Shown: positions 4,465 through 62,045 of the stretch, one piece after another
Numbering within the stretch: the stretch's first letter is position 1
Layout of the letters: every line of letters starts with the position of its first letter
Source of the DNA: Bryobacterales bacterium
GTDB lineage: Bacteria; Acidobacteriota; Terriglobia; Bryobacterales; UBA6623
DNA: 64,000 bases
Assembly (NCBI GenBank): GCA_965261065.1
Contig: OZ253444.1
Span: 3,526,382 to 3,590,381 of the forward strand
Reading direction: 5' to 3'
Position numbers and translations under genes: made by a program
The notes under the pieces: generated by a model
Seen by the model: only the letters and a program-made list of their open reading frames with translations
Databases searched by the model: none
What the model was told of the DNA's origin: nothing

Positions 4465-6015
4465 CTATGGCGAGGGCCCCGAGCCGTACGGGCAAGCCGC
4501 CGCCTGATACAGATCAGCCGCCATCGCGCGCGCCCAAAAGACTCGCGGCTTGCTGCGCCGCAGCGATGCCTTGAGATTGCGCGCAACAAAAACGTGGAAG
4601 AGATTAAAAGCCAGAAACACCGTCAACAGAAAGTTCTCGATCGCCGCGGGGTCGTGCTTATATACGTGGTCGGCGTGCCAGCCGTTGACTAACTCGTTGA
4701 AACCCTGATTCTCGATGTCCCAGCGTTGATGGCCCAACCTTACCACCCGCGCGGTCCGAACCTGCAGTGAGGAAAGGGTCGTCACCCACACCCACTCGCT
4801 GTGATGCGGATGCGGTTGGGAGTCGAGTTGCGAATACTGCTGCCAGCTCTCGACGGAACGAACCACCCGCAGCGGCTGCTGCACCTGCGGCCACGACACC
4901 AGGCCCTCGTGATCCCACCACTGGCAATCGCGACCTTGATAGTCGCCGCGTTGGGGCGCCGTGGTCGGCCACAGCCCTTGGACGTCTTGATAGAGGTTGC
5001 GGCGCTCGTCCTTGAGCACGATCACGGCGTCTTTGCCATGCCCCAATAAGAAGTTGATAAACGGGGCGGTGGCGTAGAGAGCATCGGCCAACACGACGTC
5101 AAAGGCTCGCGGATAGGTCTCGAGAACTCGCGCCAGCAAACGGTGCGCCGCGGCCATCTCGTCCTCGCCGGGCCGTTGCGGCTCGGCGTCGAGCAACAGT
5201 CGCAGCGGTTCGGAGCCGGGGGGCGCATCGGAGAGCAACAGCAGTGTGACTTGGCGATGGTAGTATTGCATCTGCTGGCCATCGCGGCGCTGCACGGTGC
5301 GCTTCAAGCATCCTCGACAGCAACGGCGGTAGCTGGCGTGAGACTCATGGCCGTCGAGCACGGCCACGCCCAGCCCGCCGATCCCGGGCAGGGCCTTGTT
5401 GCGCTTGAGCCGTTCGTAGACGTGATGAATCGCTGCCCGCACCGCGGCGGCATCGAGCCGGCTGTAGACGCGCCCGAGGGTGTCGGCGCTGGGCATCTCG
5501 CGGCCCAACCACTGTTTCCAAAACGGTGCGGGCGCTAGCGTCTCTAACGCGTTGAGGCTGCCCAGCCGTGTCCAGAACAGCACCAGCACCGACTGCAGCA
5601 CCACCCGCGTCGGGATGCGCGGCCGCGGCCTGGTGTCGCCGACGGCGGCCAGCAGCGAGTCCCGCAGACCGTAGACCTTCTCGGCGTAGTGCAGCAGGCG
5701 TCGAAGAACGTCATTCCTCCCGGCGGCTTCGGAGCCGCTTCCATTCACGCTCGGAGACCTCGTCGAGGAGCCGTTGGAGTTGCTGGTAGGCGGCCACGGC
5801 CTGGCGGACGCGGGCCTCCCAGTGGCGGGGCACAAACAGCTGCTGCAGTTGCCCTTGGCGATTCCGCACCAAATACAACGAGGCGTGAAGCTGACCGCGA
5901 GCACAGCGACAGGTGGGCTTGCCGCAGGTGCGTTGGCGGGGCGCCAGCGTGCCGTGCAGCAACCAGCGGCCATGGACGAGCTGCGCGATGCGGGAGCGGA
6001 GCCTACGTTCGGCAT
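4465..6015 (-). CDS. DDE transposase (IS4 superfamily); true N-terminus uncertain
   Basis: The C-terminal signature [27 protein letters not shown] is typical of DDE_Tnp_1-type transposases. The first ~100 codons of the listed ORF overlap ORF 5711-6049 in another frame and are probably not translated as shown. Confidence 0.75.
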
Positions 6016-6049
6016 CCGAGAGATGAGAGCGAGTGGGGGCCGCCTTCAT
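5711..6049 (-). CDS. Small Cys-motif (zinc-ribbon-like) protein, upstream ORF of the IS
   Basis: 112 aa with [21 protein letters not shown] followed by a coiled-coil-like tail. Its 3' end overlaps the transposase frame. Confidence 0.5.
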
Positions 6050-6271
6050 GACTGGTATAATTAATATATATCAGAATAACACATGGGTCAAGTCCGCCGG
6101 GGGAATGCGAATCTGCTCGGACCTGGAGGACGAGCGAAAACACTTGCTAAATCAAATGTTTCCGACCCTCAAGAAATGTGGATGCGGAACCGCTGGGGCT
6201 TGCGGGCCTGCCGTCAGCGGCGCGGGCACGGCATATCGTGCCCAATATTTCGTGGAGATGGGGCGCCGGGG

Positions 6272-7552
6272 TTAGCCGGCCTTGTCGAGCAGGGTGAGGC
6301 TTACGTTGTGGTTCTCGACCATCTCCTTGGTCACCACGAACTTCTTGACCATCTTCTTCGACGGCAGGTAGTACATCAAGTCGAGCATCAACTCTTCCAG
6401 AATCATCCGCAGCCCGCGAGCACCGACTTTACGTTCCAGCGCTAGCGCGGCGATCGACTGCAGTGCGTCTTCCTCGAAGGTCAGTTCGATGTTTTCGAAT
6501 TCGAACAGCTTCTGGTACTGGCGGATCAACGAGTTCTTCGGACGGGTCAAGATCTCCATCAAGGCCGCTTCGTTGAGGTCGCTCAGAACCGTGCTGACCG
6601 GCAGGCGTCCGACGAATTCCGGAATGAATCCATGGCGGATCAGATCCTGCGGCTGGACCTGCGCAAGCAACTTGGCGTCTCTCTCCCCGCCTTCGAGCTT
6701 CCCGGGAGCGGGTTTTTCCTCATGGTTTTCAGCCGAGCGGAAGCCCACCACCCGATGGTTCAGCCGGCGTCCGATGATCTTCTCGAGCCCGATGAACGCT
6801 CCACCGCAAATAAACAAGACGTTCGTCGTATCCACTGGCGTGAACTCTTGATGGGGATGCTTGCGGCCTCCTTGCGGAGGCACGTTTGCGATCGTTCCTT
6901 CGAGGATCTTGAGCAGCGCCTGTTGAACGCCTTCGCCCGAGACGTCGCGCGTGATGGACGGGTTCTCGTCCTTACGGCTGAGCTTGTCGATCTCGTCGAT
7001 GTAGATGATGCCCTGCTGTGCCTTTTGGACATCGCCGTCCGCCGACTGCAGTAGCTTGAGGATGATGTTCTCGACGTCCTCGCCCACATAGCCCGCCTCA
7101 GTGAGCGTGGTGGCGTCGGCGATGGCGAACGGAACTTCCAGTATCCTAGCCAGCGTTTGCGCCAACAGCGTCTTACCAGTGCCGGTCGGTCCGATCAGCA
7201 GGATGTTGGACTTCTGCAACTCGACGTCGTCGTTCGAGCGCTGTTTCGTCATGAAGACGCGCTTGTAGTGGTTGTAGACGGCGACGGCGAGGTTCTTCTT
7301 GGCCCGCTCCTGGCCGACCACATACTGGTCGAGCTGTTCGCTCAGTTCCTGCGGCTTGAGGAGAGTCAACGCACCGCCGGCCGGCTGCTCGCGGCGGTCG
7401 TCCTCAAGGATTGAGTTGCAGACCGCAACGCATTCGTCGCAGATGTAGGCCTTGGGGTAGTCGCCGGGCGTGGAAATCAGCTTCCCAACAACTTCTTGGG
7501 TCTTGTGACAGAAAGAGCAGCGGAGCGTTTCGTCCGATCCGTTTCGCTTCAC
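6272..7552 (-). CDS. clpX: ATP-dependent Clp protease ATP-binding subunit ClpX
   Basis: 426 aa with an N-terminal zinc ribbon (CSFCHK...CDEC), Walker A GPTGTGKT and Walker [10 protein letters not shown]. Confidence 0.95.
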
Positions 7553-7741
7553 CCGAGACTCCTTGGGCCGGTGATGCCTTCAGTCGCTCGAAGCCCGGCG
7601 CGGGAACAGGCTGATTTCATCTTCAACTATCCTACGATTACCTTACCATGGCATCAGATCCAATCCGCAACAAACCTTAGGGGCCGGCTAGTCTTGGTTC
7701 GGGCCGGATCTGTAAGCCGGGCGCGTCCCGGGGGGACGGTT

Positions 7742-7753
7742 GGGGGGGGGGGG
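7742..7753. repeat. G12 homopolymer in the divergent clpX/pta intergenic region
   Basis: Read directly: t-gggggggggggg-t. Confidence 0.9.
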
Positions 7754-7993
7754 TGCTGGAACGCGATGCCTTTTCGGCGCTTCGAAAGCCGTCGGCCGGT
7801 GAACACCCCGCGGCATGATTTCGGCATCAGTGCAACGGTGGTTGGTCGTTCTAGGCCGCTACCCGTTCTGTGATGTGAACAGGCGCCCGGTTGGGAAGCA
7901 ACGGCCCGGCTGGATTGCGGCAAGAACCCCGCTCGACGGCTTGCGCCGCGCGCCATTGGTCATTCCAGACAAGCCTTCGCTAAGATCGGTGAG

Positions 7994-8968
7994 ATGTCAG
8001 TGTTCCTCGATAGCGTCGTCGCCCGCGCTCGCACACTCAACAAGCGGGTCGTCTTCCCCGAGGGCGACGATGAACGCGTTCAGGCGGCGGCTGAGCGCCT
8101 GGCCCGGGACCACGTCCTCGCACCCATCCTGGTCAGCACGAACGACAACGCGCCGGCGGGCGTGACCATCCTCCATCCCAAGACCTACGCTCATGCCGAC
8201 CGCCACGTGCGTCTACTCCTCGAGCGCCGCCGGGCCAAGGGCATGACCGAGCGCGAGGCGCGAGACACAGCCGCGCAGCCACTGTACTTTGCCTCCCTGC
8301 TGCTGGCCCACGGAGAAGCCGACGGTCTCGTCGGCGGCGCCGGCAATACCACGGCCGAAACCGTGCGGGCGGCGATCTACTGTCTCGGCATCAAACCGCG
8401 GTACCGGTTGATGTCGAGCTTCATGATGCTTGTCCATCCCAACGAGAGCTTCGGCAGCCGCGGCGTGCTCGTGTTCGCGGACGCCGCTGTCGTACCCGAC
8501 CCGAATGCCGGACAGCTCGCCGACATTGCCATTGCTACTGCTGAGAACACGCGCAAGTTCCTCTCCGACCCGCCCCGCGTAGCGATGCTTTCGTTTTCGA
8601 CCAAAGGGAGCGCCCGCCACCCCATGGTCGAGAAGGTCGCCGAGGCCGTGCGGATCGTGCAACAGCGCGCGCCCGAGCTCACCATCGACGGAGAGTTGCA
8701 GGCCGACGCCGCGCTGGTCGTGTCGGTCGGACGGAGCAAAGCACCGGGTTCCCCAGTCGCAGGCCGCGCCAACGTGCTCATCTTTCCCGATCTCAATTCG
8801 GCCAATATCGGCTACAAGCTCGCTGAGCGTCTCGGCGGCGCGCAGTCGCTCGGCCCGTTCCTGCAGGGGCTCTCGAAACCCGCCAACGACCTATCCCGCG
8901 GCTGCTCGGCCGACGACATCTACTACGTCGCCGCCATCACGGCTCTTCAGGCTCAGAAAGAAGTGTAG
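7994..8968 (+). CDS. pta: Phosphate acetyltransferase
   Basis: 324 aa starting [29 protein letters not shown]..., with the PTA_PTB-type core ...[14 protein letters not shown]...SFSTKGSA...[10 protein letters not shown]. Confidence 0.85.
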
Positions 8969-9022
8969 CCGTGGCGCTGGCGTTCGAGCTTGTCTTCCTC
9001 TGCCTCAACGGGCCGAGGCTAC

Positions 9023-9062
9023 CCGCTGCCACGCTGAGTGAAACTAGTCCTCGTGGCAGCGG
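9023..9062. terminator. Perfect 11-bp-stem hairpin between convergent pta and a small minus-strand ORF
   Basis: CCGCTGCCACG (9023-9033) pairs with CGTGGCAGCGG (9052-9062) around an 18-nt loop. There is no U-tract, so terminator function is assumed from position only. Confidence 0.4.
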
Positions 9063-9150
9063 TCACCCGGCCTCATGGAGGGCTGATACACGCAGCGCCA
9101 GCCTGTTTCCAAGACTTGCCATTCGCGGCACGGCATACGTTCCTGGTTAC

Positions 9151-10380
9151 TAGTATATCGTTTCAATAAAACATACTCATACAGCAACGGTTCCTGCTAG
9201 GCTGAAGGCATGGCAGGAAAGTAGAAGCGTCTCAAGCTGCAACTCAGCCCCGCAGAGGTGCAGCATCTGGAGCGGCTGCGTGGTTCGCGGACGGCTCCGG
9301 TTCGGGAGGTGCAGAGAGCTGAGATTCTGTGGCGTTATCATTCCGGCGAGACCATTGCCGAGATTATGCGAACCGTGAAGATGACCCGCAAAAGCGTCGG
9401 CAAATGGATCGATCGAGCCCTCGCCATGGGCGTGGAAGCAGCGCTCAAGGATGCCTATCATCGTCCCCAGCAGCCCCTCATCACCGCCGATGCCAAGGCC
9501 TGGGTGGTGCATTTGGCCTGTAGCAAACCCAAGCAACTCGGTTACGCCGCCGAACTCTGGACCCGCAGTGCGCTGACTCTACACGTGCGCCGGCATGCCG
9601 TGGAAGCAGGCTATCCGGCGTTGGACCAAGCGGCTAAGGCGACCGTCCACCGGATCCTGGCCGAGCAACCTCTGCATCCAGAGAAGGTGAAGTACTACCT
9701 GGAGCGTCGCGATCCCGATTTTGAGTCCAAGATGCGGCAGGTGTTGCTGGTCTACCGCGAAGTGGCTTGGCAGAATGAAAGCCCTCGCGACGGCCTCTCG
9801 CCGGAGGTGATCACGGTTTCGGTAGACGAGAAGCCCGGCGTGCAAGCGATCGCCAACGTCGCGCCGGACCTGCCGCCGAAGCCTGGGCGGCATCCCAGCG
9901 TGGCTCGCGATTACGAGTACAAACGTCTAGGAACTTGCTCGATTCTGGCGGCGCTGGACTTGCATAGCGGTCGGGTGACGGCGCGGGTGGAGCGGCGTCA
10001 CCGCAGTCGGGAATTCATCTTGCTGCTCCAGGATCTGGACCAATTTTACCCGGACGAGTGCACGATCCGATTGATCTTGGACAATCATTCCTCGCACATA
10101 TCGAAGGAGACGAAAGCCTACTTGGCGACGCGTCCGAACCGCTTCAAATATGTGCATACGCCCACCCACTGGTCCTGGCTCAACATAGTCGAGACGCTGT
10201 TTGGCAAGATGGCGCGCACATTCTTAAAGCGAATACGAGTCGAGTCCTGGGCGGAGCTTCGGGAACGAATCCTGAAAGGAATCGCGGAGATCAACGCCGC
10301 TCCAGTCGTTCACCGCTGGAGGAAGTTCGAGTCGCTTGAGGTCACCTAGAGTGGGTATGTTTTAGTGAAACTATATACTA
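9151..10380 (+). mobile_element. IS630-family element, type A (my label), copy 1
   Basis: The 1226-bp body (9153-10378) is flanked by TA on both sides. It has ~30-bp imperfect terminal inverted repeats (GTATATCGTTTCAATAAAACATACTCA / complement of TGGGTATGTTTTAGTGAAACTATATAC). A near-identical copy lies at 28149-29378. Confidence 0.9.
9258..10349 (+). CDS. IS630-family DDE transposase
   Basis: 363 aa counted from GTG 9258, with an HTH N-terminus and DDE contexts VSVDEKPG, LILDNHSSH and SWLNIVETLF. An upstream in-frame ATG (9210) is separated from the ORF by TAG at 9222-9224. Confidence 0.9.
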   Translation: MQHLERLRGSRTAPVREVQRAEILWRYHSGETIAEIMRTVKMTRKSVGKWIDRALAMGVEAALKDAYHRPQQPLITADAKAWVVHLACSKPKQLGYAAELWTRSALTLHVRRHAVEAGYPALDQAAKATVHRILAEQPLHPEKVKYYLERRDPDFESKMRQVLLVYREVAWQNESPRDGLSPEVITVSVDEKPGVQAIANVAPDLPPKPGRHPSVARDYEYKRLGTCSILAALDLHSGRVTARVERRHRSREFILLLQDLDQFYPDECTIRLILDNHSSHISKETKAYLATRPNRFKYVHTPTHWSWLNIVETLFGKMARTFLKRIRVESWAELRERILKGIAEINAAPVVHRWRKFESLEVT

Positions 10381-52818: not shown

Positions 52819-54018
52819 ATGACCAACCGTAGACGCTTTCTGCAAACGATCCCGGCGGCGGCGTCCGTCGGTCTGGCCACGACGGGCTGCGGCGCTGGCG
52901 ACCTGCCCGGGCCCGAGCGCGACTACTTCCACGAATTGGGCGTGCGGCAGTTCATCAACGCCGCCGAACCCTACACCGCCCTCACCGGAGCGTTGATGCC
53001 GCCCGAAGCCGTCCAGGCCATTGTCTACGCTTGCACCCGCTACGTGCGTTTGGCAGACCTGCACGATGCGATTGGCCGGCGGCTCGCCGAGATGATTGGT
53101 TGTGAAGGGGCGATGGTCTGCGCCGGCGCGGCTTCAGGCCTCACGCTCGGAACCGCCGCGTGCATCACTGGCAGTGACCCCGACGCCATCCGTCAACTCC
53201 CCGACACGACCGGCCTCAAGAACGAGGTCATCATCCAGAAGGCCCACCGCTACGGCTACGACCGTGCCATCCGAAACTGCGGCGGCCAATTCGTCGAGGT
53301 CGAGACGCACGAGCAACTCGAAGCCGCCATCAATGAGCGCACGGCGGCCATGCTCTTCAACAACACCAACGACCCGAAGGGCCAAATCAAGGTCGCCGAG
53401 TTCGCCGCGCTCGGCAATAAGCACGGCATCCCGGCGTTCGATGACTGTGCCGCCGACGTCCCGCCGGCCTCGCACCTGAACGAATACCTCGACATGGGTT
53501 TCGACCTCGTGACCGTCTCGGGCGGTAAGGGCATCTACGGCCCACAGAACGCCGGTCTGCTGATCGGCCGCAAAGACCTCATCGAGGCCGCGCGCCTGCA
53601 CAGCCCTCCATCGAGCGCGGGCATCGGACGCGGCATGAAGGTCAGCAAGGAAACGATGCTCGCCATGATGGTGGCCGTGGAGTCGCTTCTGGCGCGCGAT
53701 CACGAGGCTGAGTGGCGCGAGTGGGAGCGCCGCATCAACCTCATCGCCGAGAAGGTCGCCGTCATTGACGGCGTGCGAACGGAGACATTCACGCCGCCCT
53801 TGCATTACCACGTCCCTCACTTGCGCATTCAGTGGGACGAGCAGCAAGTTCCCGTCGCGCCCGTCGACGTCAAGCGCCGTCTTCGCGAGGGAGACCCTTC
53901 GATCGAGCTCCGCTCCAGCCCCAACGACCGGATCGAGTTAGGCGTATGGATGCTCAAACCCGGCCAGGAGGAGATCGTCGCCGAGCGGATCCACGAAATC
54001 CTGGCCGCCGCGGCCTGA
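52819..54018 (+). CDS. Tat-signal SelA-like PLP-dependent enzyme
   Basis: 399 aa with twin-arginine signal MTNRRRFLQTIPAAASVGLATTGC and PLP-lysine context VTVSGGKGIYGPQNAGL, typical of SelA/DgaE-like aminotransferase-fold proteins. Confidence 0.65.
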   Translation: MTNRRRFLQTIPAAASVGLATTGCGAGDLPGPERDYFHELGVRQFINAAEPYTALTGALMPPEAVQAIVYACTRYVRLADLHDAIGRRLAEMIGCEGAMVCAGAASGLTLGTAACITGSDPDAIRQLPDTTGLKNEVIIQKAHRYGYDRAIRNCGGQFVEVETHEQLEAAINERTAAMLFNNTNDPKGQIKVAEFAALGNKHGIPAFDDCAADVPPASHLNEYLDMGFDLVTVSGGKGIYGPQNAGLLIGRKDLIEAARLHSPPSSAGIGRGMKVSKETMLAMMVAVESLLARDHEAEWREWERRINLIAEKVAVIDGVRTETFTPPLHYHVPHLRIQWDEQQVPVAPVDVKRRLREGDPSIELRSSPNDRIELGVWMLKPGQEEIVAERIHEILAAAA

Positions 54019-55521
54019 CGAGAAAGACGGATTCAAAATGGGGCGCGAGATGGACTTTGATCCTTTCTACGGGAGCAAGGGCGAGAAACCATCGGCCCAA
54101 ACGGCCGAAGTGCCGACACGGCCGGCGACGGCAGGATGAGTTGAGCGGTACGAGGTAAGCGGCACGAGTTCGCAAGGTTAGAGGAAGGGAAGCGACAGCG
54201 AAGGACATGCCCAGACCGGGAGTTCACAACGACTGCGACCCCGGGCCGGCCGCTAGCGAGGCCGACTGTTAGCGAGCAGCGTCGGAAAGACCGAACTTCA
54301 AACAGCACTGCGTCGGGCAGACGCCGAAGAGAGTGCGGATGGAGGCCCGGTTTGAAGGCGTCCCGAAACTGAAGTTTCCTGGGGCTCCTTGCCAGTTGAC
54401 AAAGCGAATCTCCTCATGGAAACCCGGCGGTGGAGCCGCAAGGCGGGAACCTCGGGTACCGACCCTCTTTCTTAATGGGAGCCCTGAAGATGGAAAAGCC
54501 GCGACGCACCATCACCACGCCCTCCAGCCGCGCAGCTTGAAATCAAGATCCGTGATGCGGTACCCGATGTCCCATGGCTTGCGCGCCTGGCCAGTGGCGC
54601 AGGTCCCTAGACCTGCCGTGTCGTTACTCTTACCGACACACGTCGACCGGAAGGTCGACGCCCACACGAAACCCCGAGCATCGACATGAGTGTCGATGCG
54701 GCAGACGTAGGCGTCCGCGCCACACCGCCAACCCGCTCGACTAGCGGCCGAACAAAGGAGGTCTACCCTGCTCGCGCCCCCCCCGGTTGATGCCAACGAA
54801 GGAGCGTACGTTGTCCAACGCTCGCCGGCCCAACGCTGCCTGCGACAGCTCAGCGGCATGCCGTTGCCCTCTGCCGCCCCACCGCACGCCCCCAACGCTT
54901 CATCGATCGGCGGAACCACGGCTCACCGATCAACTGCCGCCGATCTCGGCGAGCAGGCGCTCGGCTTCGTCGAGGGCGGGCTGGTAGCAATGCGGCGGGC
55001 CGTCGCACTCAGCGCGTTCCTTGGCGGTTTCGGCGTGGCTGCGGGCGGAGGTGAGGTCGCCGGCGTCGAGGTCGAGCCGGGCCAGGAAGTTGTGGATGTC
55101 CGCCTGCTGCAGGCGGTACCCGCAGCGGTCGGCGATGCGCCGGGCTTCTTCGGCGTCACGGCGGGCGGAGCCGGCCGCGACTTGGGTGCGATGCCAGCGG
55201 GCCCAGGCGAGCAGGATGTCGGCCTCGACTTCGACTAGGTTGATCCGGCGGCAACGGGCAAGCGCTTCGGTGAGGTGCTTTTCGGCCTTGGCCAGATGGC
55301 GGTCGCGCTGCCGGGGTTCGTGTGACGCCAGGGCCTCCCGCGCCCAGCCGAGCAGCCATTCGGCCCGGATGATGTCGCGCTCAACGCTCTCGACATCGGC
55401 GAGTTCGCGCGACTGGCGGGCGGCTTCGAGGGCGGCTTGAGGATCGCCCATGAACAGGGAGCGCAGAGCTTGGTAGACCTCATCGGAGCAGAGGCCCTGT
55501 TTATGGTCAGCTTTTCTCCAA

Positions 55522-56552
55522 GCTTGGTATCCACTTGACTCAGGTGACCCCAAGATGTAGTGTAGGGCCTGGTGGAGGATTACCCGCGCGACCAACTCGA
55601 ATTCGAGTCTCGCTTTGCGAGCGAGGAGGCTTGCCGCGACTATCTGTTCGCCTTGCGCTGGCCAGAGGGTTTCCGCTGTCCAAGGTGTGGGCATGAGCGC
55701 GCTTGGCCGGTGCGCAAAGTGTGGTTCGAATGCGCTCGCTGCGGGCGGCAAACCTCCGTCACCGCCGGCACGATCTTTCAAGACACACGCAAGCCGCTGC
55801 GGCTGTGGTTCCGGGCGATGTGGACCATCACCACGCAGAAGAATGGGGCCAGCGCCCTGGGTCTACAGCGCGTTCTGGGACTGGGCAGTTACCAAACCGC
55901 CTGGCCTTGGATGCACAAGCTGAGGCGAGCGATGGTGCGCCCGGGGCGGGAGCGATTGACGGGCCTCGTCGAGGTCGATGAGACCTACTGGGGCGCTGAA
56001 GAAGAAGGGGTAATCGGCCGGCAGACCGAGCGTAAAGCGTTGATTGCAGTCGCCGCGGAAGAGAGAGGCACCGGGCTGGGGCGCATCCGCATGCAGCGCG
56101 TTCAGAACGCCTCGGCGGCCAGTTTGATGCCCTTCGTCGAGGAGTCGGTCGAGCCGGGCAGCGTGGTTGTTACCGACAACTGGTCGGGCTACGATCCGCT
56201 CAAGAAGAAGGACTACCAGCGTCGTATCATCTCGATTAACAACCGCCGCGAGCAGGCCTCGCAGCTACTGCCGAGGGTGCACTTGGCGATCTCGCTACTC
56301 AAGCGCTGGATGCTGGGCACGCATCAGGGGGCGGTCAGCCACGAGCATCTGGACTACTATCTCGACGAGTTCGTGTTCCGCTTCAATCGGCGCAGATCAC
56401 GCAGTCGGGGCAAGCTCTTCTACCGCCTTGTGCAGCAGGCCATGGCGGTGGAGCCGACGCCGTACCGCTCGATCGTCGCCGATTGGGACGCTAAGACGCT
56501 GTGAGCCCAACTACAAGATGTTGGGGTCACCTGAGTCAAGTGGATACCCGGC
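55522..56552 (+). mobile_element. IS1595-family insertion sequence
   Basis: 1031 bp with 32-bp inverted repeats GC(T/C)(T/G)GGTATCCACTTGACTCAGGTGACCCCAA. An 8-bp direct target duplication TTCTCCAA sits at 55514-55521 and 56553-56560. Confidence 0.9.
55572..56504 (+). CDS. IS1595-family (ISXO2-like) transposase
   Basis: 310 aa with an N-terminal zinc ribbon (FRCPRCGH...FECARCGRQ) and DDE contexts VEVDETYWG and VVTDNWSGY. Confidence 0.9.
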   Translation: MEDYPRDQLEFESRFASEEACRDYLFALRWPEGFRCPRCGHERAWPVRKVWFECARCGRQTSVTAGTIFQDTRKPLRLWFRAMWTITTQKNGASALGLQRVLGLGSYQTAWPWMHKLRRAMVRPGRERLTGLVEVDETYWGAEEEGVIGRQTERKALIAVAAEERGTGLGRIRMQRVQNASAASLMPFVEESVEPGSVVVTDNWSGYDPLKKKDYQRRIISINNRREQASQLLPRVHLAISLLKRWMLGTHQGAVSHEHLDYYLDEFVFRFNRRRSRSRGKLFYRLVQQAMAVEPTPYRSIVADWDAKTL

Positions 56553-56941
56553 TTCTCCAATACCCCGTCGAGGCTTCCAGCTCCTGGGCCGCCTCGTCGA
56601 AACGGCCTTCATAAGCCAGCAGGCGGCCCAACTCCTGGTGGCCGACGGCCTCCCGAAATTCCTCCTCGATCTCGCGGCACAGCTCGACCCGGCGGCGCAA
56701 GTTGCGCTCGACCGCCGCTAGCTTGCCGATCGGGAGCTGAGCCATGTGGGCCAAGTTCCCCAGGCCGATCGCGAGGTTCTCCTTGTCGCTCGCCTTTTCC
56801 CGAAGGCTGTTGTGCATCTCGAAAACCGGTACCGCCCGGCCTGGCTGCCCGGACAGGCTATAGGAGTTGGCCAGTCCATTGAGCGTCCAGGCCTGGTCGC
56901 GCTCGTCCTTCAGCCGAGCCGGGCGGCCCTCGCCGTCGGGG

Positions 56942-58462
56942 AACATCCATGATAGGTATCTGTCAAGGATGGACGCAGTCATCCGAATCCTCCCGTCAGC
57001 GGGGGCGTTGTCTTCAGCAGTGACGCTTCGCAGCCCGAGCGTTTTTGCGAATCAAGTCGCAAGGTCAACGAGTCACGTGACCAGACATCCATGTGCGCGC
57101 ATCGGGTCGCCCCACCGTACCGGCCGGGGGACCGTCGCGGAAGATTCAGTTTGGGTTTTCAGGCCCGCCGGCCTCGAAACAGAGATACGGACGCATCAGA
57201 AATTTCCCAGGAAACTCCCAGCAAACTCCTTCGCGTAGTCCCCAACAGGCGAGGACCGGCGGGCCGCTCGTGACACCGCACAGCGTCGATGAAACTCTTC
57301 GTTTCTCCTTTTAACAGAAAAAAAGCAAATTCTCCTCGTTACGCCTCGGCCGCAACCCGCGGCACGAACGCGCGGCCACTGGTGTCCACGGCCCGCAGAT
57401 ACGTCACCAACTTGCGCGCCACGGCCAACGTCGCGCGATTGCGAGACCCGCGCGTCAACTCCCGCTCATGGACGTCGTGCAGTTGCGGGTTCCAGCGCGG
57501 CGCGAGTTTCGCCGCCTCGATCAGCACCCGCTGCAAATGCTTGTTGCGCTGCTTCGACAGCGGTCCCCGCTGCGTCTTGCCGGCCGACTCGCGCTGTGCC
57601 GAACACAACCCACAGTAACTCACCGCCTGGCCCAGCGAACCGAAGCGCTCGGGCTCGACGGTCTCCAGCGCCCAGGTCAACGCCGTCACCTCCCCCACGC
57701 CGCGAATCGACTGCAGCAACTCGACGCGTTCCCGCAACAGCGGATGGCGCCGCAATCCGCGCAGTAACTCCTGCTGCAAACGATCGAACATTTCCAGGCT
57801 GCCGCGGGTGATGGCGAGCAGCTCGATCACCGACTCGGGCGTGTCGCGCAGGCTGTCGAGATAGGAGTAGAAATAGTTGCGCCCGTGCAGCCGCCGGGCA
57901 TCGTAGGGTTCGCCCACTTCCATCAGTAGCCCGCTGATTTTGTTCTTCATGCGGACGGCTTCGCCCAGCAGCAGATTGCGATAGCGCAGCACGCGCCGCA
58001 ACTCGCGCAGGGCAGGCGGCGCCACGTAGCAGCGCGGCAGCAGGTTGCAGCGCAGCAGGTCACTGATCTTGGTGGCGTCGAGACGGTCGTTCTTCTTCTT
58101 GGCGCAGGCGATGGCCTTGAGCATGGCCGGGTGTGCGACTTGCAGTTCCTGGGCGAAGGGCTGGAGGTGATCGTAAATCCAGCCGGTAAACAGGGTGGCT
58201 TCGAGCGCGCCCACCCAAGGGCGCTCGAGGGCTGACGCCCAAGCGGTCAGGGCGGCGCGAGTGGCCGCGACCTGACCGCGCTGGACGATCGTTCCGTCCC
58301 CGGTTTTGATGCAGAAGCTGATGCTTTTCTTATGGACATCGAGTCCGATGTAGTAGAGTTCTGGCATGGAATCCTCCTGGGATTGGCTCTGAGCCGACCG
58401 CGTGGCCGCTCTCAGCATTTTGCCCCCGGGAGGATTCCTCTTTGCCACTACCTATGCATTGA
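56942..58462 (-). mobile_element. IS110-family (IS1111-like) insertion sequence
   Basis: About 1.52 kb; the ends are good to roughly +/-5 bp. TGTT is present at both junctions. Subterminal inverted repeat CATAGGTA / TACCTATC(A)TG. There is ~95 nt 5' and ~395 nt 3' of the transposase CDS. Confidence 0.75.
57339..58367 (-). CDS. IS110-family DEDD transposase
   Basis: The start is ATG 58367, with AGGAGG upstream. The N-terminus reads MPELYYIGLDVHKKSISFC and the C-terminal motif is LQSIRGVGEVTALTWALE. Confidence 0.9.
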   Translation of the reverse strand: MPELYYIGLDVHKKSISFCIKTGDGTIVQRGQVAATRAALTAWASALERPWVGALEATLFTGWIYDHLQPFAQELQVAHPAMLKAIACAKKKNDRLDATKISDLLRCNLLPRCYVAPPALRELRRVLRYRNLLLGEAVRMKNKISGLLMEVGEPYDARRLHGRNYFYSYLDSLRDTPESVIELLAITRGSLEMFDRLQQELLRGLRRHPLLRERVELLQSIRGVGEVTALTWALETVEPERFGSLGQAVSYCGLCSAQRESAGKTQRGPLSKQRNKHLQRVLIEAAKLAPRWNPQLHDVHERELTRGSRNRATLAVARKLVTYLRAVDTSGRAFVPRVAAEA

Positions 58463-60886
58463 AACAGAGCACTGAGAAGTTCGATGCGCATCTGGTAGGC
58501 CCCGAAGCGGTAGTAGAGCAGTTGGTTGAGCCGGTCTCGGAACAGCTCGCGCGCCTCGTCGTACCGTCCGGCACCCACGGTATGGTGGTACAGCTCGATG
58601 ACCGGCGCCAGGTCGCCGACCGACTCCACCTTGTCCGGCGCCGGCACGGCATCGAAGTAGTCCCGCAGCCGGCTGTGCACACCCTCTTTGTCCCCCAGCC
58701 GGTCGTAGGCATACTGCCGGACAATCGGGTGCAGGTCGTAGCGGCCGCTCCCCTCGTCGATGAAGAGCAAGCCGCGCGATTCCATCTCCTCCAGCGCTTG
58801 GTCGAACTCGTCCTCGCTCTTAAACGGGTTCAAGTGCAGCAGCGCCTCGTAGTCCATCGGGCTGCGGAACGCGGCGAAGCGGCTGAGCAGGCCGCGCTTC
58901 GCCTCGTCCATCTCGTCGTAGGCGACTTGCAGGATGTGGTGCTGCTCTTTGCCTCTCAGCTTGTCGAGCACGGTGTGCCGCCCCGCCGCCCGAATGTCGC
59001 CGCGCATCTTCGGGTCTCGGAGAATTGCGCCCGCCAGGAGCCGCAGCGAGAGCGGGTGCCGTCCGTAGGGAGCGATGGCCGCGCCGATCTCGGCCCGCGT
59101 GCCCTGGATGCCTTCCGACTGGAAGAAGGTCACCGCGTCTTCGGGGTCCAAGTCGTGGAGATCCTCGCGCCGGCAGCCCGCCAAAGGGCCGTCCGGCCCT
59201 TGCAGCTCTTTCGGAACCAGCCGGCTGGTCAGCAGAACTCGCCCTTGGTGAGAGGCGGCCATTGCCTCCAGAAAGTCCCCTGCGTGAGGATCGACGCAGC
59301 CGTTCTCGTCGCCCGCCGTCTTGTCGCCGCGGTACGCCGCATCGAGCCCCTCGTAGGCGCGCAGCTCACGCTCGAAGCCGTCCAACACCAGCAGAATCCG
59401 CCGCTGCTGAAGCTGCGTGAACAAGGCCCGAACCTTCTCCGAAGGCGAGCGGATTGCGGCCGGGTCGATCCGGCCGCCGCTGGCATAGGCCAGAGCCTCA
59501 TCGAGAAACGAGGCAAAGCGTGCCTCGCGCTCGTAGAACGACCACCACAGCACGCCCTCGGGCCGCTGCTCGTCGGCCACGCGGCAGCCCTTGGCACTGG
59601 CGGCACTTTCCTCGGCATGTCCCGGCAGCGGCAAGCCCAGCACGTCGCGCTGCAGCCAAGCCCACGTCAGCGCCGACTTGCCCATGCCGCCGATGGCGAT
59701 CAGCGCCATCACCGGCTGATTGCCGCCCGTCAGCCATCCGGTCAGCATCCGCCGCTCGTTCACCCGCCCTGTGAAGTTCGGTTGGAGCGGGTAGGGCGGC
59801 ACAAAGTCGGGCTTCGGTGGCCGTGGGCGAACCTGTGGCGCTGCGGGCGTTTTTCTGAGGCGGGCACGAAGCGGTGCGGGTGACTCCACCGGTTCGGCCG
59901 GTTTGCGATCCCCACCGGCAGGCTTCTCGTCAAGCCTGCGCCGCCACCTGCTCCCCTCGGTTGGTACGGCGAGGCCCTTGCCTTGCAGCCTTCGCAGGCT
60001 CTTTCGCACGGCCACCTCGGTCGGTCTTCGGACGCGGCCTTTGAGGGACCCACAAACGTCTTCGATGCTTGCGGCTTCGGAGACCCTTGCGTCCAGATAC
60101 TCGACGATGCAATGGTCAATCTTCTCGTTTCGCCGCGCAACCCACCAGCGCCCCACACCAACGGGAACACCGACGATAGCGGCCAAGCCCGCCAGTATTG
60201 ATATGGCTGTGACAGGGTCCATAGCTGACGCCTTCGGAAGTCCCCACCGATTCTAACGTCTATTCACACGAAATGCCCGTCGTTCTCCTCATCCCTAGAG
60301 GCCCAAATCCGTACGTAAGAATTCTGACAAGCCCGTGATACCCCGGCTCCCCGCAACCGCGACACCCGCGACAACGGAGCCGCGGATGTAAATCCGCGGG
60401 CGCGGCAGAGGCCCGCGCTTCTTGATAGCGCAACCTGCCCTATCCAACCGCGGGGTCCAAGCCCCGGCAGGGGCGCATGAGACTTTCTGCTCCCACATCC
60501 GGCTCTCTTCGAGCCCCACCCTTCGAGTCATGAGAGCGTTACGACAGAGATTCACCATTTAGACGCCAAAGAAAACGAACCCAAATCATCCGAGGTCATC
60601 CCCGGCGCGACGAAAACGTGAGGAACAAACCCACCGAACTCACCCCGCCCCAGCACAGTCACGGAATTTCAAAAATAATTTCCCCAAACCTTTCAACGAC
60701 TTGCCTCTCCAGCCACCCGCCGGCCCTACACCCGAACCGTACACTGAGGATGAAGAAAAGCCGGTCGCGGTCTGGCCGGCGTTGAGAGGGACGCGACGAA
60801 CCTGGGCGCCGTACCGGGAAGGAGCCGCGGGATCGGACCGGGGCACCCGGGCCATCAAAAAGGAGGCGAACCCCGAAGGGGTGGCC

Positions 60887-60916
60887 AAAATAAAAGCCCT
60901 GGGCGTGAGCCCAGGG
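60887..60916 (-). terminator. Canonical intrinsic terminator on the minus strand
   Basis: The minus strand reads CCCTGGGC-TCAC-GCCCAGGG followed by CTTTTATTTT. The stem is at 60897-60916 and the U-tract at 60887-60896. Confidence 0.7.
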
Positions 60917-61198
60917 AACCGATCCCCTTCAAACCTCCCGAGCCCTGTAATGGCGGCACAACCAACCACACCGCGAAGACCGATGACGCACAACCAACCA
61001 GCTCCACGCTACCGGCGCGCCGGGCTTCGCCGATACGTAACGGAGATCCAAGGCCCCCTCTGGAAAGCGGGCAAAAACGGACAAAACAGGACAAAACAGG
61101 ACATTTTCGGGCGACCCACACCCGCCGAACCGGCCCTCAGCCCGCCCCCTAAACGTTCACTTCAACGGCCCCCGCCCAGCGCCGCAACCGGCCCCCAA

Positions 61199-61969
61199 CT
61201 ACCTCCCCATCCAGCCGCCGTCGACCGTCACGATCGTGCCGTTGACATAGTCGGCGGCCGACGAGGCCAAGAACACCGCCGCGCCAGCCAGGTCTTCGGG
61301 CTCGCCCCAGCGGCCCTGCGGAATCCGCGAGAGGATCGCCGGGTTACGCACGGGGTCTTTCTGCAACGCCGCCGTGTTGTCGGTACGGATGTAGCCCGGC
61401 GCGATGCCGTTCACGTTGACGCCGTGGCCGGCCCACTCGTTCGACAGTGCCATCGTCAACGTGGCGATGCCGCCCTTGGCGGCAGCGTAGCCGGGCACCG
61501 TGATGCCGCCCTGAAAGCTCAGCAGCGACGCCGTGAAGATAATCTTCCCCGCGCCGCGCGCCAGCATCTCCTTGCCGAACTCGCGGCTCAGAATGAACTG
61601 CGCGTTCAAGTTGACCTCGACGACCTTGTCCCAATACTCGTCGGGGTGCTCGGCGGCGGGTTTGCGAAGGATCGTGCCCGCATTGTTGACGAGGATGTCG
61701 ATCACCGGCACGTCCGCCTTGACCCGGCCGATGAAGTCGTAGAGCGCCTCGCGGTCCGAGAAGTCGCAAGCATACGCGCGGCAGCTCCGTCCCGTGGCGC
61801 GGACGGCGGTTTCCAACGCGCTGCCTTCGGCCTCGAGCGTGGCGCTGACGCCGACGATGTCCGCGCCCGCCTCGGCCAGCGCGACGGCGATCGCCTTGCC
61901 GATGCCCCGCTTCGCGCCCGTCACGAGCGCGGTCTTGCCGTCAAGTCGAAACTGATCAAGGATGCTCAT
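61199..61969 (-). CDS. Short-chain dehydrogenase, 2-deoxy-D-gluconate 3-dehydrogenase (KduD)-like
   Basis: 256 aa from ATG 61969 (MSILDQFRLDGKTALVTGAKRGIGKA), with NNAG and YAAAKGG (YxxxK). Confidence 0.75.
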   Translation of the reverse strand: MSILDQFRLDGKTALVTGAKRGIGKAIAVALAEAGADIVGVSATLEAEGSALETAVRATGRSCRAYACDFSDREALYDFIGRVKADVPVIDILVNNAGTILRKPAAEHPDEYWDKVVEVNLNAQFILSREFGKEMLARGAGKIIFTASLLSFQGGITVPGYAAAKGGIATLTMALSNEWAGHGVNVNGIAPGYIRTDNTAALQKDPVRNPAILSRIPQGRWGEPEDLAGAAVFLASSAADYVNGTIVTVDGGWMGR

Positions 61970-62045
61970 AGCGATTGTCACGAGACGCTGGCAGTCGTCC
62001 GGAGGACGCAACAACGCAACAGAGTGTCAAGTTCTCAACAAGCGC

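Follow-up and report, generated by a model that had tools for sequence, protein, structure and literature searches.

Which gene lies in pieces between positions 54930 and 60222 of this stretch of DNA, and what did it do before it was broken up? The stretch (hereafter the window, the whole 64 kb that were analyzed) comes, according to our genome scan, from a member of the Bryobacterales (Acidobacteriota). The gene occupies the minus strand as three open reading frame (ORF) pieces (58330–60222, 56536–56982, and 54930–55781) with two transposase genes in between, and lies between a SelA-like aminotransferase gene (52819–54018) and an SDR gene (61199–62014). A sequence-only reading of the window had taken these pieces as one membrane-anchored STAND NTPase gene hit by two different insertion sequence (IS) elements, and it is confirmed here that they are a single gene interrupted twice. 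Before that, it probably encoded an Avs/NLR-like STAND immune sensor, a single-gene system of the abortive-infection type, inactivated recently and with a membrane-acting N-terminal effector, a reading to which we give a probability of roughly 55%.

Taking out an IS110-family element, an IS1595-family element and one copy of the 8-bp target duplication joins the reverse complements of 58463–60222, 56553–56941, and 54930–55513 into a 2733-nt sequence that can be read through in a single frame as 910 codons and a terminal stop, without internal stops. The single ORF expected from the letters was therefore restored, with 910 codons instead of the approximately 912 that had been counted. An out-of-frame reconstruction had been named as one way in which this idea could fail, and the computed joints are in frame and match the orthologs without indels. 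At the IS110 joint the repaired protein reads ...ELLSALF/PDGEGRPARL... and aligns without gaps with ...ALFPDGENRPPRL... of intact orthologs (ALFPDGENRP). At the IS1595 joint it reads ...ASTGYW/RKADHKQGLC... and aligns equally well with ...ASTGYWKRIDDKQGVC... (shorter stretch STGYWKRIDDKQG). The whole repaired ORF aligns gap-free with intact orthologs at 76–81% identity. Its first fragment (58463–60222, minus strand, codons 1 to ~587) encodes a transmembrane (TM) helix, a winged helix, a linker, the NOD (nucleotide-binding oligomerization domain) plus most of a helical arm. The annotated reading frame continues from there into IS110 sequence and so comes to 630 aa (58330–60222); this ORF is 100% identical to the database protein P0006. 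The second fragment (56553–56941, minus strand, codons ~587–716) carries the end of the arm and the first tetratricopeptide repeats (TPR), and holds one target duplication copy (56553–56560). The third (54930–55513, minus strand, codons 717–910 plus stop) carries the C-terminal TPRs and ends in the conserved CDGPPHCY...AERLL.

The two IS elements are unrelated, as the earlier reading had recognized. The first one, of 1031 bp (55522–56552, plus strand), interrupts the TPR array at codon 716. It has imperfect terminal inverted repeats of ~40 nt and lies between two identical direct copies of an 8-bp target sequence (TTGGAGAA as read on the gene strand), at 56560–56553 and 55521–55514. Its 310-aa transposase (55572–56504, plus strand) matches Zn_ribbon_IS1595, DDE_Tnp_IS1595 (E = 3e-29), and NF033547 (204.5 bits), and the DDE_Tnp_IS1595 domain with an N-terminal zinc ribbon, the inverted repeats and the 8-bp duplication place the element in the IS1595 family. 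The other one, of 1521 bp (~56942–58462, minus strand), interrupts the arm within codon 587. TGTT is all that its ends have in common with the target at the two junctions, which leaves a 4-nt ambiguity in its boundaries. It has neither terminal inverted repeats nor a long target duplication and belongs to the IS110 family, its transposase (ORF 57339–58448, minus strand, probable start at 58367, MPELYY...) matching DEDD_Tnp_IS110, Transposase_20, and NF033542 (176.6 bits vs. a cut-off of 140). The non-coding ends of this element measure 95 nt on the 5′ side (58368–58462) and 397 nt on the 3′ side (56942–57338). Transposition in the IS110 family is RNA-guided and site-specific, and elements of the IS1111 subgroup are likewise laid out with a short 5′ and a long 3′ non-coding end, a bridge RNA being expected there on the 3′ side of the transposase. 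No Rfam match was found inside the element, and a k-mer comparison gave a single 9-mer, CTCTGTTTC, common to the 3′ non-coding end and the left target/IS junction, which is a weak match. Elsewhere in the window neither IS recurs, and five other transposase types are absent from it as well.

The repaired protein was modeled with AlphaFold2 from a 119-sequence alignment (pLDDT 88.8, pTM 0.81), and the model recovers the domain order that had been read from the letters: TM helix, winged helix, Pro/Arg-rich linker, NTPase, and TPRs, all given here on the minus strand. The TM helix (60148–60210, aa 5–25, TAISILAGLAAIVGVPVGVGR; Kyte–Doolittle 19-residue maximum of 2.16 at residue 6) contains the small-residue motifs AGLAA and GVPVGVG and is directly followed by RWWVARRNEK. 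By the positive-inside rule the protein would have an N-out/C-in topology, with all remaining domains in the cytoplasm. In the models the N-terminal hydrophobic helix spans residues 3–45 and is continuous with helix 1 of a three-helix domain, a basic winged helix (59932–60126, aa 33–97) made of three helices and a β-hairpin wing, with a net charge of about +6 and a pLDDT of ~90 (residues 31–100). When the isolated N-terminal model was searched with Foldseek, only winged-helix domains were matched (cullin WHB, BlaI-like Rv1846c, Z-alpha/Z-beta, Fur, IclR, and linker histones H1/H5), with root-mean-square deviations of 1.3–2.5 Å and all of them at E > 1e-3. The linker (59773–59931, aa 98–150) is disordered (pLDDT < 50 at 99–133).

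The central STAND NOD (58633–59772, aa ~151–530), delimited by the AlphaFold2 model, motifs and Foldseek, consists of a nucleotide-binding domain (NBD), a helical domain (HD) and a winged-helix domain (WHD). It shows FTGRVNER (hhGRxxE; 59752–59775), the Walker A motif AIGGMGKS with an invariant K182 (59674–59697), the Walker B motif ILLVLDGFE (59371–59397), and the GxP motif YGRHPLSL (59044–59067). The motifs quoted in the earlier reading were correct for ILLVLDGFE and GRHPLSL and wrong by one letter for the P-loop (AIGGMGKSAL, not GIGGMGKSAL). A P-loop NBD followed by a helical and a winged-helix domain, with Walker A and B and hhGRxxE, puts the protein in the STAND NTPase superfamily. Against the PDB, Foldseek ranked PH0952 first (6mfv, E = 1e-15) and Apaf-1 second (E = 6e-8), followed by CED-4, Roq1, and Avs3 (8dgc, E = 1.6e-6), and PH0952 (6mfv, E = 7e-11) was also retrieved with a family sequence profile, as was AfsR in its TPR region. 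The description of the NTPase as NB-ARC-like is thus supported by fold and motifs (Apaf-1 in particular) but not by the Pfam NB-ARC and AAA_16 models. A Pfam scan of the repaired protein gave TPR models only, with no match to NB-ARC or AAA_16 at E ≤ 1. The 23.5-bit gathering score of NB-ARC (PF00931) was not reached, with 18.5 bits over 27 residues for the relative P0012, and an NCBIfam scan found no NB-ARC, AAA_16 or Avs match. The profile searches that had been proposed therefore succeeded for TPR and failed for NB-ARC, AAA_16, and Avs.

After the NOD, the model shows a helical arm (residues 535–584) and then TPR-like hairpins (600–909) up to the C-terminus. In the family alignment (numbering of the repaired protein) C804, C886, and Y893 are invariant or nearly so and C309, C350, and C847 nearly invariant, as is the C-terminal CDGPPHCY(K/Q)PALDEAERLL, which is kept invariant or nearly so across phyla. 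Conservation of this kind could point to a metal site, or to a cap critical to the structure of the TPR array.

What such a protein does is best approached through its relatives. A homolog search returned >2,600 significant matches, spread over methanogens and numerous bacterial phyla, whose NOD-TPR core is ~55–64% identical to that of the repaired protein. Among the matches are full-length orthologs with the same N-terminus (P0001–P0004, 913–929 aa, 76–81% identity). The remaining homologs among the 120 best match the query over ~85% of its length, from the end of the linker through NOD, arm and TPRs, with 54–82% identity, and have different N-termini. Among these 120, DUF4062 is the commonest N-terminal module, and TIR, HNH, Mrr_cat, PNP_UDP_1, and HATPase_c_4 also appear, together with a conserved two-TM module found in eleven proteins, as well as several N-termini with one TM helix and a short coiled coil. 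The TM-winged-helix module is confined in this set to the window protein and P0001–P0004. When ten relatives were run through PADLOC, their enzymatic N-termini matched effector models of Thoeris, CBASS, and pAgo. DUF4062 was recently shown by experiment to be a TIR-like NADase, named NIR as an Avs effector (10.64898/2026.09.04.749371) and present in Swarozyc as well (10.64898/2026.05.01.722283). A hallmark of prokaryotic conflict systems is a sensor/NTPase core that stays constant while its killing domain can be replaced (PMC8195603), and the two features by which STAND clades have been classed as defense-associated are variable effectors on a constant core and enrichment near known defense genes (Lee et al., 2026, PMC13581612). 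The family shows the first of these features, immune-type effector domains being present in a substantial share of its 120 best homologs, and not the second, judged from a small sample of ten genomic contexts. Members at 34–63% identity were found by genome scan in Verrucomicrobiota, Chloroflexota, Armatimonadota, Planctomycetota, LCP-89, Methanothrix, and Methanosarcinales archaea, and this spread over many phyla and archaea implies extensive horizontal transfer.

The orthologs that share the TM-winged-helix N-terminus are found at two unrelated loci. P0001 and P0002 are at the same chromosomal position as the window gene in related assemblies (L001 and L004), and P0003 (L003) and the L023 copy, both TM-winged-helix alleles of related Bryobacterales, lie between an AhpC/TSA-type gene and a gene for a 901-aa outer membrane protein (OMP) barrel. 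At this same AhpC/TSA to OMP-barrel locus another assembly, L031, has P0005, with a DUF4062 N-terminus and a core 82% identical to the window protein. The flanks of L031 and L003 are 92–97% identical in nucleotides, and a block of ~150 nt that ends ~25–30 nt 5′ of the start codon is conserved at 91.6% identity. The N-terminal cassettes (L031 8001–8504 vs. L003 10001–10393) have no similarity at all, and from the linker ...PP.P.F..PYP... onward the cores are again 84% identical. It is evident that the TM-winged-helix and the DUF4062 NADase cassettes are alternative alleles of one gene at one locus, and no other finding speaks as strongly as this swap for a place of the TM-winged-helix module in the effector slot. 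Compared with the DUF4062 alleles, the breakpoint falls at aa ~131–135 of the window protein, where homology restarts at ...RP.PP.P.F..PYP..PNFTGR. The proposal that the TM helix and winged helix hold the effector position is borne out by these cores of 76–82% identity that carry DUF4062 there, including the one at the same locus. Beside the swap, L003 has ~825 nt of extra upstream DNA that is not present in L031.

The gene is changing faster than its surroundings. In comparison with L001 and L004 its nucleotide identity is 84–86%, vs. 91.5–95% for the neighboring genes and 91–98.6% for the intergenic flanks, and its dN/dS ratio (ω) is ~0.31 vs. 0.07–0.14 for the neighbors, with a peak of dN (0.20–0.32, ω 0.34–0.56) in TPR residues 600–725. 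Judged from these sequences, this indicates a relaxed or diversifying evolution. In the source genome the gene is dead, the IS110 element splitting the arm and the IS1595 element the TPR array. A second assembly (L002) carries this double-IS allele too, at 99.9% identity, and the 630-aa read-through ORF occurs in at least four assemblies. We considered extra decay of the repaired ORF and rejected it: it deviates at 8 of 262 family positions that are ≥90% conserved, as compared to 2–8 in intact orthologs, which means that the insertions are recent. Some of the 630-aa copies (P0125, P0127, and P0128) have changes at near-invariant NOD residues (R153L, P390Q, R453L, Y495S), a pattern that fits drift after inactivation or a secondary inactivation of the sensor-less remnant and that could also come from assembly errors at low coverage. 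The L023 ortholog (6001–9230) is another casualty, with a frame change near codon 345, the 3′ end of the gene deleted and an IS630-type element (DDE_3 and HTH ORFs, TA duplication, ~8133–9229) after codon ~726, about 10 codons from the IS1595 site of the window. This is an independent pseudogenization, by a third IS family. Five of the seven TM-winged-helix lineages are intact. The view of an accessory gene, put forward from the window alone, agrees with the faster evolution than that of its neighbors, with the independent loss in L023 and with the finding that it is no deeply syntenic housekeeping regulator.

If the gene encoded an immune sensor, it may have worked as follows. The single N-terminal TM helix would anchor the protein in the inner membrane, with the winged helix, NOD and TPRs on the cytoplasmic side. 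By analogy with PH0952, Apaf-1, and Avs, the arm and TPR array would hold an ADP-bound NOD closed until the TPR array binds a conserved ligand (a phage protein most probably) and the NOD is thereby opened. Nucleotide exchange and oligomerization would follow and cluster the N-terminal modules, gathering TM helices (small-residue-rich, GxxxG-type) and basic winged helices at the membrane. The clustered cassettes would perturb the membrane and/or trap nucleic acid there and so arrest the infected cell, the basic winged helix serving either for binding nucleic acid at the membrane or as a spacer. In the sister alleles (DUF4062, TIR, HNH, Mrr, and PNP) the same step would lead to the destruction of NAD+ or nucleic acid. 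A more specific version, in which the cassette is an undescribed non-enzymatic STAND effector, a membrane helix bundle with a basic collar that seizes phage or chromosomal DNA and is interchangeable with NADase and nuclease cassettes, strikes us as a long shot.

Several observations weigh against an immune sensor. We found no experiment in the literature on phage protection by the family or on a phage protein as its trigger. PADLOC-DB v2, which includes AVAST/Avs1–5 models, gave no family at E ≤ 1 for the repaired protein, and in the ten relatives it had no model for the core, only effector domains or generic TPRs being matched. The genomic contexts of ten family members (the window, L001, L003, L004, L005, L006, L007, L023, L031, and L032), including Mrr, two-TM, and DUF4062 members of other phyla, contain no recognizable defense gene, in a small sample and without a statistical test. 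In all ten the gene is solitary among metabolic or housekeeping genes, so that the defense islands in which intact relatives might have been expected did not materialize. Neither domain scans nor the profile search recognized an enzymatic domain in the TM-winged-helix module, and ω is below 1 in every segment, giving no sign of positive selection. The persistence in at least four assemblies of the sensor-less 630-aa remnant (TM, winged helix, and NOD) suggests, if anything, that the module is not strongly toxic (the earlier reading had thought of a gene possibly toxic when active), provided that loss of arm and sensor relieves autoinhibition as in other STANDs; alternatively, the remnant is not made. 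Finally, PH0952, for which a role as transcription factor is predicted, is likewise built with a basic winged helix in front of its NOD and TPRs.

This last point leads to the most obvious alternative, a transcription regulator akin to PH0952, AfsR or MalT and tethered to the membrane, in which ligand binding to the TPRs would drive oligomerization, the winged helices would bind repeated DNA sites and the TM helix would serve for localization only, as in ToxR/CadC-type regulators. The domains recovered by model, fold, and profile are indeed those of a PH0952-like STAND-TPR protein (N-terminal winged helix, NOD, TPR-like arm, TPR sensor), and AfsR, with a winged helix-turn-helix, NOD and TPR, is among the profile matches. 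The winged helix is strongly basic, with the canonical motif ...LRRLQGKGLAV... at the transition from recognition helix to wing and with the DNA-binding Rv1846c, Fur, and IclR among its near folds, and the gene is situated among ordinary metabolic genes, syntenic in L001 and L004. However, a core of 76–82% identity bears an NADase-type effector at the same locus and others bear TIR, HNH, Mrr or PNP, which is the pattern of a conflict system. The occurrence of orthologs at two unrelated loci leaves no fixed target operon, fast evolution and repeated pseudogenization also sit badly with a regulator, and a TM helix only ~8 residues from the DNA-binding domain would probably be awkward for promoter binding. 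For these reasons we hold a regulator to be unlikely. It is also conceivable that the module has no killing activity of its own, either recruiting a separate effector as an adaptor or acting as a membrane sensor or decoy that modulates paralogous STANDs. The absence of an enzymatic domain, the tolerated NOD-containing remnant and the adaptor-like look of the short coiled-coil N-termini elsewhere in the family, in line with the effector-associated-domain principle (PMC8195603), would be accounted for in this way. There is, on the other hand, no conserved neighbor gene as a source of the effector, and independent TM-only N-termini recur in the family, as would fit TM helices being the effector, and this effector-less variant appears quite improbable.

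A separate matter is whether the double insertion reflects selection against a costly or autotoxic gene, rather than chance in a dispensable one. Two unrelated IS landed in one 2.7-kb gene while neither transposase family occurs elsewhere in the window, a third IS (IS630) hit the ortholog of another genome independently and at nearly the same place, and an IS200/605 transposase is found in the upstream tract of L004. But the second insertion would have been neutral once the first was present, two IS in 64 kb would share one gene by chance in ~4% of cases (our own estimate, for a case picked post hoc), sequence may set the position of the site-specific IS110 element, and most of the TM-winged-helix lineages have kept the gene. 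Selection is therefore a doubtful explanation, and because of the neutral second hit, the ~4% chance with its post hoc choice and the site specificity of IS110 we take the double hit as mild evidence for a dispensable or costly gene. These genomes are IS-rich around the family genes: the IS200/IS605 Y1 transposase of L004 (8753–9196) is in the intergenic tract upstream of the intact P0002, an IS1595 relative (72% nucleotide identity) is found ~9 kb downstream in L001, and a cluster of four transposases directly precedes a DUF4062 family member on its 5′ side in L032.

Among described systems, Avs proteins (Gao et al., 2022; Lee et al., 2026, PMC13581612) are similar to the putative sensor in being one gene with an N-terminal effector, a STAND NOD and a C-terminal TPR-like sensor, and in an overlapping repertoire of effectors (DUF4062/NIR, TIR, HNH, Mrr-type restriction endonuclease, PNP, and TM). 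They differ in that the window family has no PADLOC Avs1–5 match or defense neighbors (ten contexts), in the much smaller size of the window protein (910 aa) compared to Avs1–4, and in the unusual conservation of the family sensor across phyla (~55–64% identity). PH0952 of Pyrococcus horikoshii (PDB 6mfv) is the best match by both profile and fold, with the same order of winged helix, NOD, TPR-like arm and TPR sensor. Its N-terminal winged helix is ArsR-like, it is regarded as a transcription factor and its clade is sister to the Apaf-1 clade (PMC6468293), which fits the secondary matches to Apaf-1 and CED-4. PH0952 has, however, no TM helix and is only 16% identical, and the window family exchanges its N-terminus for killing enzymes. 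With the NB-ARC/AP-ATPase NODs (Apaf-1, CED-4, and plant R proteins; PF00931) the protein shares the NBD-HD-WHD fold, hhGRxxE, Walker A and B, and the GxP motif (GRHPLSL vs. GLPLAL), although the Pfam NB-ARC model does not match it. TM effectors are drawn in the Avs7/Dsr1 figure (PMC13581612) and TM and helix-turn-helix (HTH) modules are listed in the bNACHT catalog (10.1101/2022.07.19.500537). A TM or HTH N-terminus, which the earlier reading had called unusual, is therefore not without precedent, both being already cataloged for bNACHT/Avs proteins and PH0952 bearing its own winged helix. The difference from these bacterial STAND NTPases with TM and HTH modules is that in the window protein TM and winged helix form a single cassette of ~130 aa, exchangeable with a DUF4062 cassette at one locus.

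It is this cassette that is new, modular Avs/NLR-like STAND sensors being already known. When 1.84 billion representative proteins were searched with a profile built from the five N-termini that bear it, the three matches obtained all fell in the low-complexity linker, and as far as sequence goes the cassette is an orphan, with no detectable relative beyond five to seven Bryobacterales genes. Should the immune-sensor reading be right, the family would provide a natural series of one conserved NOD-TPR sensor with many effectors (NADases, nucleases, PNP, TM, and TM-winged-helix), a convenient system for studying how STAND oligomerization activates unrelated effectors and how a non-enzymatic membrane or winged-helix effector acts. 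Loss of the gene is documented by three IS families (IS110, IS1595, and IS630) in the sensor half, in two genomes. Modular effectors, TPR sensing and frequent loss are already established for Avs/NLR-like proteins and the window copy is a pseudogene, so the gain is an incremental one.

As for the surroundings, no conserved partner gene was found. A housekeeping regulator with deep synteny was considered and rejected, because synteny is limited to relatives of >90% identity and the gene is also present at a second locus. The two ORF-free tracts that had been noted around the gene are real (54019–54929 and 60223–61198), but the upstream one is not empty, as it holds, ~650 nt before the start codon, an Acido-Lenti-1 small RNA motif (RF01687; 60869–60916, minus strand; 40.2 bits vs. 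a gathering score of 37). Its first hairpin (60916–60897) with the following U-run scores as a terminator, and the motif fits an acidobacterial origin. The motif belongs to the locus and not to the STAND gene, since the upstream tract is not conserved at the alternative locus of L003. On the other side, the non-coding block 54019–54536, 3′ of the SelA-like gene, is 97.3–98.6% identical to L001 and L004, above the 91.5–95% (dS 0.16–0.29) of the adjacent coding genes and hence more conserved than coding DNA. With no Rfam match and no convincing ORF in it, this block is possibly an undescribed RNA or regulatory element.

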